This document shows, one piece after another, positions 48,424-48,933 of a stretch of DNA of 64,000 bases. The position numbers and the translations under genes are program-made. Position 1 is the first letter of the stretch, and every line of letters begins with the position of its first letter. The DNA comes from Escherichia phage ECO111 5-P: the sequence record OR844765. One strand, given 5' to 3'. Below the pieces are notes generated by a model. That model searched no databases and had not been told where the DNA came from. It saw only the letters and a program-made list of their open reading frames with translations.

Positions 48424-48647
48424 GCGTATTAACAGAAACTTTGATTAATGACCTGCGTCTAGCCGGTTACGAAGTTGGTACAAATAGCCTAGGTCTTCCT
48501 CAGATTGAAGGGCCTGGATTTATCCTAGAATATGAATTCAAACAATGGTGGTTATATGCTACGGTTGACGATGCGATGAATATTGATTTCGTTGACCAAT
48601 TTGATTCGCTGGATGCTGCTCTTGAAGCAGCAAAGGAACTAGAATGA
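48420..48647 (+). CDS. hypothetical acidic protein
   Basis: ORF track 75 aa. Confidence 0.45.
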   Translation: MSVLTETLINDLRLAGYEVGTNSLGLPQIEGPGFILEYEFKQWWLYATVDDAMNIDFVDQFDSLDAALEAAKELE

Positions 48648-48662
48648 AATTAAGGAACTAGA

Positions 48663-48933
48663 ATGAAATTAACTCGAATCAGTATAACTGAAGAAAAGCT
48701 GGGCGAATTTTATGTTGACGAATACATGAAAGTCACGTATTTTCCATTCGTTAAAGGTGTTGGTTTTTTGGGAAACTCATGTATCTCAATTAAACGAAGG
48801 CGACTATAACGAAACACATGAGAACTTTTTAGATTTTCTTTATAATGCCGGTCTTACTGAGCTTTATATCGATATCCATGAGTTCAAACGTTTAATGGAA
48901 AAAGTGTTTCAGGCTTATTGTTTGCTCCGATAG
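48663..48933 (+). pseudogene. frameshifted small gene (two ORF halves joined by removing one T from a T6 run)
   Basis: Frame A ATG 48663 to TAA 48809 (48 aa); continuation in the next frame to TAG 48933; T6 run at 48764-48769; removing one T gives an 89-aa ORF. Confidence 0.35.

Follow-up and report, generated by a model that had tools for sequence, protein, structure and literature searches.

A one-base insertion in a T run and a 19-bp tandem duplication at the start of the DUF7200 gene of a Mosigvirus: probably a recent pseudogene

Two kinds of slippage mutation, the Streisinger frameshifts of T4 rII and lysozyme and the slipped-strand tandem duplications, are the closest described counterparts of the changes reported here, and the gene in which these changes lie belongs to a described family, DUF7200 (PHROG 1822, the RB69ORF072c family). 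Two systems are relevant to the question of whether a frameshifted gene may still yield its product. In herpes simplex virus, the G-run of the thymidine kinase gene can carry a 'savior' indel with low-level compensatory frameshifting (Atkins et al. 2016, PMC5009743), and in E. coli a +1 frameshift is known from prfB. Below we set out how one locus of a T4-like phage compares with these systems.

We analyzed a stretch of 64,000 nucleotides of Escherichia phage ECO111 5-P (OR844765), referred to here as the window. The window comes from a Mosigvirus, one of the RB69-like phages of the T4 family: its larger blocks are ~97% identical to JK45, mar005P1, AlbertHofmann and others, and the 601-bp region under study matches 152 GenBank phage records at 90-99% identity, 118 of them over most of the query. 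Variation in gene content is seen elsewhere in the window. The nrdD gene (anaerobic ribonucleotide reductase, 43266-45083) is uninterrupted and encodes 605 aa, and in the JK45 locus (18184-21046) it is split by ~1 kb of extra sequence with an annotated homing endonuclease, I-TevII. A 218-aa ORF at 21339-21995, in a segment (~21333-21998) without alignment to phage ESh27, may be an inserted or variable gene.

The local gene order in RB69 is 55.2, 55.1, RB69ORF072c and 55 (late sigma factor), and both changes fall at the junction of 55.1 with the RB69ORF072c homologue, the DUF7200 gene, and within the latter, directly upstream of gene 55 (Table 1). Gene 55.1 is undamaged in the window, and repeat copy 1 contains its native C-terminus and TGA stop (48645-47). 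A protein identical to the window 55.1 is encoded by phage vB_EcoM-pEB20 (OP114733), where the DUF7200 gene is intact. At 48576 the window has an A where most relatives have a T, which changes Leu to Met in 55.1 (...DDAMNIDF...). On the other side of the locus, between the DUF7200 stop and gene 55 (48940-48990), a perfect 8-bp inverted repeat (48950-57 / 48977-84) surrounds a TATAAT-like hexamer. The hexamer is preceded by GTGCTTTAA, which we take to resemble a MotA box of T4 middle promoters. This segment is probably the promoter and regulatory region of gene 55.

Table 1. Features of the 55.1/DUF7200 locus in the window and, in the last five rows, altered DUF7200 genes in other sequences.
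Feature	Location	Strand	Basis or source
Gene 55.1 homologue, 75 aa, Pfam DUF5495	48420..48647	+	DUF5495 match, 103 bits
Perfect 7-bp inverted repeat, TGCTGCT / AGCAGCA (48614-20 / 48626-32), 5-nt loop	48614..48632	+	inverted-repeat search
Repeat copy 1: last 15 nt of 55.1 including the stop, with duplicated ribosome-binding site and ATG (48644)	48633..48651	+	sequence, Tandem Repeats Finder, alignment
Mini-ORF, 5 codons, MKLRN then TAG (48659-61), product of the duplication	48644..48661	+	translation
Repeat copy 2: ribosome-binding site AAGGAA and ATG (48663) of the DUF7200 gene; single-copy native start in relatives	48652..48670	+	sequence, alignment
Truncated DUF7200 ORF, 48 aa (35 native and 13 out-of-frame residues), TAA stop	48663..48809	+	ORF table, profile search
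T6 run; T5 in relatives, hence one inserted base and a changed frame at codon 35/36	48764..48769	+	alignment, exact-word searches
Predicted junction-region peptides at the T6 site, ...GVGFWETHVSQLNEGDYNETHENF... versus ...GVGFLGNSCISIK			
Stranded DUF7200 C-terminal part, codons 36-89 (WETHVSQLNE to QAYCLLR) and TAG, +1 frame	48769..48933	+	ORF table, alignment
Gene 55, late sigma factor gp55, next downstream gene, anchors the locus	49006..49563	+	annotated gp55 at the equivalent position in RB69 and AlbertHofmann
15-bp deletion AAGGAACTAGAATGA, start region of DUF7200 (L012)	270-290 of the contig, = window 48633-48647		ENA ERZ4883041, NODE_55999, coverage 2.3
Two in-frame nonsense codons in the heavily substituted first 21 codons (L009, L011)	~541-600, = window 48663-48725		Logan SRR21291469, SRR21291482
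13-bp internal deletion, Tequatrovirus-type DUF7200 gene (L013)			phage vB_Eco_F26 (OP870145)
T5 to T4 at a different T run, Tequatrovirus-type DUF7200 gene (L014)			ENA ERZ27280392
Stop-loss variant of the Mosigvirus DUF7200 protein (P0015), 94 aa, with added QYLVL			listed on 20 contigs

As such, a run of six T is not unusual in this DNA (the window holds 14 T runs and 47 A runs of at least six), and it is only through comparison with relatives that the run at the DUF7200 gene gains significance. Downstream of the run the +1 frame is open to the TAG at 48931-48933, and removal of one T yields a single ORF of 270 nt that encodes 89 aa. The repaired protein matches the Pfam DUF7200 profile (PF23830) with 117.5 bits over positions 1-89 of 89, against a curated cut-off of 27 bits, and it also matches phrog_1822 (PHROG 1822). 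The actual 48-aa ORF, in contrast, reaches 30.7 bits and matches only profile positions 1-34 of 89. The stranded C-terminal part carries 0 substitutions relative to JK45. An undamaged downstream frame of this kind is compatible with a very recent event, and just as compatible with an error or with a frame that is still in use. Re-initiation at GTG 48757, as a way to make the C-terminal part, was considered and rejected because the sole SD-like sequence overlaps that GTG.

The gene that is interrupted in this way encodes a member of a genuine conserved protein family. A tblastn search with the repaired protein returned 894 T4-like phage records, with identities down to ~30%, from phages of Escherichia, Shigella, Klebsiella, Enterobacter, Yersinia, Salmonella and other hosts. 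At least 80% of the protein is covered in 887 of these records. In RB69, AlbertHofmann, JK45 and pEB20 an intact 89-aa orthologue is found at the equivalent position, in ATGA overlap with 55.1. An AlphaFold model built from four homologues (pLDDT 92.5) shows four strands followed by two helices. When the frameshift at residue 35 is placed on this model, it deletes strand 4 and both helices, and with them WETHVSxLNE and EKVFQAYxLL, the motifs that are conserved best. The frameshift is shown to truncate a conserved folded domain, and the 48-aa product should be non-functional. A structure search of BFVD with the model retrieved only uncharacterised T4-like phage proteins, and a literature search on DUF7200 and ORF072c found nothing relevant, nor did one on the sample accessions.

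Comparison with relatives allowed the ancestral arrangement to be recognized. In every full-length relative among the matches listed, the 601-bp region of the window has a counterpart of 581 bp, and in the alignment the 20 extra bases consist exactly of the second 19-mer and one T. All GenBank relatives that we examined have a single 19-mer and T5. When 50,697 phage records were searched for exact words, neither a 40-mer containing T6 nor a 41-mer spanning the duplication junction was matched, whereas a T5 control 39-mer matched 92 records; likewise, T6 was found in none of the 118 matched Mosigvirus records. Searches for the duplication junction in viral contigs, in metagenome contigs and in species-representative genome contigs gave 0 matches in each collection. 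T6 also had 0 matches in the viral and metagenome contigs, collections that are poor in Mosigvirus and in which the T5 control itself had only 1 match. In complete E. coli genomes and in plasmids the region had no match. The extra bases and the exact-word results agree, and both changes are therefore derived, and private or nearly private to this genome. The alignments and word searches show T6 and the duplication as derived states relative to all GenBank relatives.

The second change, the duplication, is the most conspicuous tandem repeat of the window. The 19-mer AAGGAACTAGAATGAAATT (48633-48651) is repeated immediately (48652-48670) with 100% identity, and the match extends by two further bases (AA), so that Tandem Repeats Finder counts 2.1 copies with a score of 80. 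The scores of all remaining tandem repeats of the 64-kb window lie at or below 38, and for this reason the repeat cannot be attributed to chance. The unit starts with AA (48633-34) and AA also follows copy 2 (48671-72), which provides microhomology at the boundaries of the duplication. Its left edge coincides with the end of the 7-bp inverted repeat, which also occurs in relatives and may act as a pause or slippage site.

The earlier note on this DNA had described the repeat and its duplication of the 3' end of ORF 48420-48647, as well as the T6 run at 48764-69 within a 48-aa ORF from 48663 that extends to 89 aa, ending at 48933, once a T is removed; our sequence and repeat searches reproduce all of these features exactly. 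It had further proposed that the duplication creates a gene start. Here the comparison leads to a different conclusion: all relatives have the same ribosome-binding site and ATG once, where the ATG forms the tetranucleotide ATGA with the 55.1 stop, and the duplication therefore creates no gene start. This shared ATGA is seen in RB69, AlbertHofmann, JK45 and pEB20; in the RB69 locus, 55.1 lies at 1521-1748 and ORF072c at 1745-2014, and the other three phages are arranged likewise. In the window the overlap is lost from the DUF7200 start, as the 55.1 stop (48645-47) overlaps only the ATG of the mini-ORF (48644), and the DUF7200 ATG (48663) sits 16 nt beyond that stop. The mini-ORF thus shares an ATGA with the 55.1 stop at its start, and a single nucleotide separates its end from ATG 48663. 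The duplication only separates two overlapping, coupled genes, and both the 55.1 C-terminus and the DUF7200 start are kept.

Three further consequences of the duplication were considered and rejected. A fusion of 55.1 with DUF7200 is prevented by two intervening stops (TGA 48645 and TAA 48651), although the two ORFs share a frame after the duplication. An altered RNA structure around the start is not predicted, the folds with and without the duplication being essentially the same. The 19 and 1 extra bases do not compensate each other, since their sum, 20, is not a multiple of 3. At 47516-47523 a second gene junction is altered by a small indel, again with both ORFs still open: the window has one T more than JK45, and an ATGA overlap has become an abutting TAA-ATG (ORFs 47296-47520 and 47521-47721).

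Taken together, these observations probably reflect two separate, lineage-specific replication-slippage mutations in one small non-essential early gene of a Mosigvirus, the RB69ORF072c homologue, which has become a recent pseudogene. The proposed course of events is as follows. T5 would have become T6 by Streisinger-type slippage on the homopolymer, shifting the frame at codon 35/36. The resulting 48-aa product would lack strand 4 and both helices, leaving the DUF7200 gene as a recent pseudogene. The 19-bp duplication would have arisen by slipped mispairing between AA dinucleotides 19 bp apart, beside the 7-bp hairpin, and would have turned the ancestral ATGA overlap into two separate signals and a 5-codon mini-ORF. 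Its effect was probably near-neutral, and it would have been better tolerated if DUF7200 was already dead.

The pairing of these events poses a problem: how do two private indels come to lie in a single 270-bp gene? If they were independent and neutral, their coincidence would be unlikely, and this counts against loss of the gene by slippage. Relaxed constraint after a first hit could explain the pair. We infer that slippage was the mechanism, that T6 was the earlier event, and that both changes are present in the DNA of the phage and not just in the reads.

The alternative that survives best concerns this last point. The extra T could be a homopolymer error of sequencing or assembly, in which case the phage would truly have T5 and an intact 89-aa DUF7200 protein, whether or not the duplication is real. 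Homopolymer miscalls are a well-known artefact on several sequencing platforms. Apart from the duplication, the extra T is the sole difference from JK45 over 401 bp (48560-48960), the downstream frame is undamaged, and T6 is absent from the 50,697 GenBank phage records searched, observations that are in keeping with an error. The rest of the assembly argues the other way. We surveyed indels in the window against JK45 (24.7 kb to 64 kb) and against ESh27 (1 to 25.3 kb), using the CDS tables, and in the aligned parts, which make up most of the window, no other coding frameshift or homopolymer indel was found relative to either phage. The other clusters of frame-changing indels are all intergenic, at gene junctions, or at the diverged ends of ORFs that are intact in the window, and from 48765 to 62851 there are zero indels relative to JK45. 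Thus the assembly does not appear error-prone: with 61 A/T runs of at least six in the window, several coding frameshifts would be expected from an error-prone platform, and the aligned parts show a single one.

A miscall is also countered by the finding of the same allele elsewhere. An identical 48-aa product is encoded in a 169-kb contig (ENA ERZ27275920) and in a Logan contig (SRR10084837), both of which have T6 without the duplication. These two contigs are identical over 3759 bp and may share reads, and we therefore count them as one independent observation of T6 rather than two. The phage they represent differs from the window at 54 of 3759 positions (1.4%) and is no closer to it than is JK45. 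On these contigs T6 is present in a second, distinct phage assembly, recovered by two pipelines (a k141-named ENA contig and the Logan contig). Within the window itself, the perfect 19-bp duplication lies 93 bp upstream of the T run; it is atypical of base-calling or assembly errors, and it represents at least one further private change in this gene region. We therefore consider a miscalled T unlikely, and an assembly artefact at the duplication is less likely than a miscall at 48764-69.

We also considered whether the loss of DUF7200 is adaptive, that is, whether certain hosts select for its inactivation, as they might if the protein were costly or were sensed by a bacterial defence system, with the T run and the 55.1/DUF7200 junction as recurrent targets. 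There are at least six different disruptive alleles in independent assemblies: T6, the T5-to-T4 change, the 13-bp deletion, the 15-bp start deletion, the nonsense codons and the window duplication (Table 1). The 15-bp deletion removes the ribosome-binding site and ATG of DUF7200 and changes the 55.1 C-terminus to ...LEAAN*; it shares its left breakpoint with the window duplication, directly after the 7-bp hairpin. In the two sequences with nonsense codons, the gene is almost unchanged from Met22 on, and gene callers give a 68-aa product that starts at this Met. The 94-aa stop-loss variant looks like the result of a TAG-to-CAG change at the equivalent of window 48931-33. Selected loss would account for both private indels of the window lying in the DUF7200 gene, and, judged by their flanks, neither T6 genome is the nearest relative of the other, which is compatible with recurrence.

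Other features of the same data weaken this explanation. The DUF7200 gene is intact in ~99% of GenBank records, which is what sporadic neutral loss or error would give. Around T6 the local haplotype does not vary, which makes recurrence indistinguishable from transfer by recombination, and low-coverage metagenome contigs are the source of several broken alleles (coverage 2.3 for the start deletion). Literature and structure searches provide no function, partner or defence link for the DUF7200 protein. Adaptive loss is, in our judgment, quite improbable, and the pattern of broken alleles fits the occasional loss of a dispensable accessory gene. A more elaborate version, in which DUF7200 is a recurrent target of selected inactivation (for instance as a trigger of host defence), the T run and the hairpin-flanked junction serve as on/off hot spots, and low-level +1 slippage on T6 supplies a residual dose, appears more improbable still.

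Finally, the T6 allele might still yield full-length DUF7200, whether through a +1 slip of the ribosome with tRNA-Phe on UUU_U, ahead of the rare codon UUG, or through RNA polymerase dropping one U. To this proposal we give the least credence of those considered. An associated suggestion, drawn by analogy from the 'savior' indel of herpesvirus thymidine kinase, is that the indel would lower the dose of protein rather than abolish it; this too we regard as barely credible. The site does have some of the properties required: a +1 move from UUU (48765-67) to UUU (48766-68) keeps full anticodon pairing and restores the native ...GFWETH..., the shift codon is preceded, at a distance of 5 nt, by an SD-like AAAGGTG, and the +1-frame remainder is undamaged in both T6 genomes. 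The direction of the motif is mixed, however, since UUU_U permits +1 re-pairing whereas the heptamer U_UUU_UUG is of the -1 type and the shift needed is +1. T6 is not conserved (0 of 118 Mosigvirus records, and no exact-word match against 92 for T5), 887 of 894 records match the gene over at least 80% of the protein, and no conserved shift site or two-frame architecture is present among relatives. All of the flanking sequence, including AAAGGTG, is identical in T5 relatives, and hence nothing has evolved here to promote shifting; a stimulatory element specific to the T6 allele, whether a downstream structure or an SD-like sequence, is absent. The downstream stem-loop is weak (-6.7 kcal/mol, z -1.26). 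Slippage by RNA polymerase is expected to be rare, because the RNA-DNA hybrid spans 9-10 bp and the run only 6 (PMC5009743 and established knowledge). Frameshifting by -1 on T_TTT_TTG with the downstream stem-loop was rejected, because the stem-loop is weak and a ribosome in the -1 frame would meet a stop after 7 codons. Recoding at T6 is thus without support.

The earlier note had left three readings of the T run side by side, a recent pseudogene, a sequencing error and slippage-dependent expression, and the analysis separates them. The first has the most support: in relatives the run is T5 and a single frame encodes the 89 aa, and the repaired protein matches DUF7200 end to end, whereas the real ORF matches it over positions 1-34 only. 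The second is still a live possibility, though a weaker one. The third finds no support, given the absence of T6 from relatives and the weak stem-loop. The note had also named an observation that would speak against its account, namely relatives devoid of the downstream frame; in the locus comparison the relatives carry this frame intact.

For the biology of these phages, the preferred interpretation, a recent pseudogene formed by slippage, would mean that one more small accessory gene of a T4-like phage has been lost by ordinary replication slippage. For annotation, 48663-48933 is best described as a DUF7200 pseudogene with a frameshift, or marked as possibly containing a homopolymer error, and not as two ORFs or as a recoding site. 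The gene has several independent broken alleles; if its loss were selected, this would offer a handle on the function of an uncharacterised family of early genes.

How does the locus compare with the systems described at the outset? It resembles the prfB frameshift in that UUU_U can re-pair in the +1 frame in the P site, with an SD-like element a few nucleotides upstream; the next codon is UUG, which is slowly decoded. It differs from prfB in that the site is not conserved, the SD-like element stands 5 nt away instead of 3, the A site lacks a stop codon, and the flanks pre-exist in T5 genomes, which require no shift. With the 'savior' indel of herpes simplex thymidine kinase (PMC5009743) it has in common a homopolymer indel in a viral gene whose product rare slippage could restore, but the run in the window is only 6 nt, the shift is +1, and neither a stimulatory element nor any sign of selective benefit or of a compensatory product is seen.

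The resemblance to the slippage mutations is closer. Like the Streisinger frameshifts of T4 rII and lysozyme, the T6 allele is a one-base gain in a short A/T run of a T4-family gene, with a shifted frame and an early stop; unlike them, it comes from a sequenced genome rather than from laboratory selection, it affects a gene of unknown function, and only the result of the event is seen. The 19-bp repeat has the marks of a slipped-strand tandem duplication, being a perfect head-to-tail copy of a sequence that is single in relatives, with AA at its boundaries and a hairpin adjoining it; it is distinctive in that it spans an ATGA overlap, spares the signals of both genes and makes a mini-ORF. The repaired protein of the window, for its part, is a full-length, high-scoring member of DUF7200 and PHROG 1822, the RB69ORF072c family, encoded in the same place between 55.1 and 55. 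Both changes are thus ordinary mutations of kinds already known, and they represent no new mode of gene expression.
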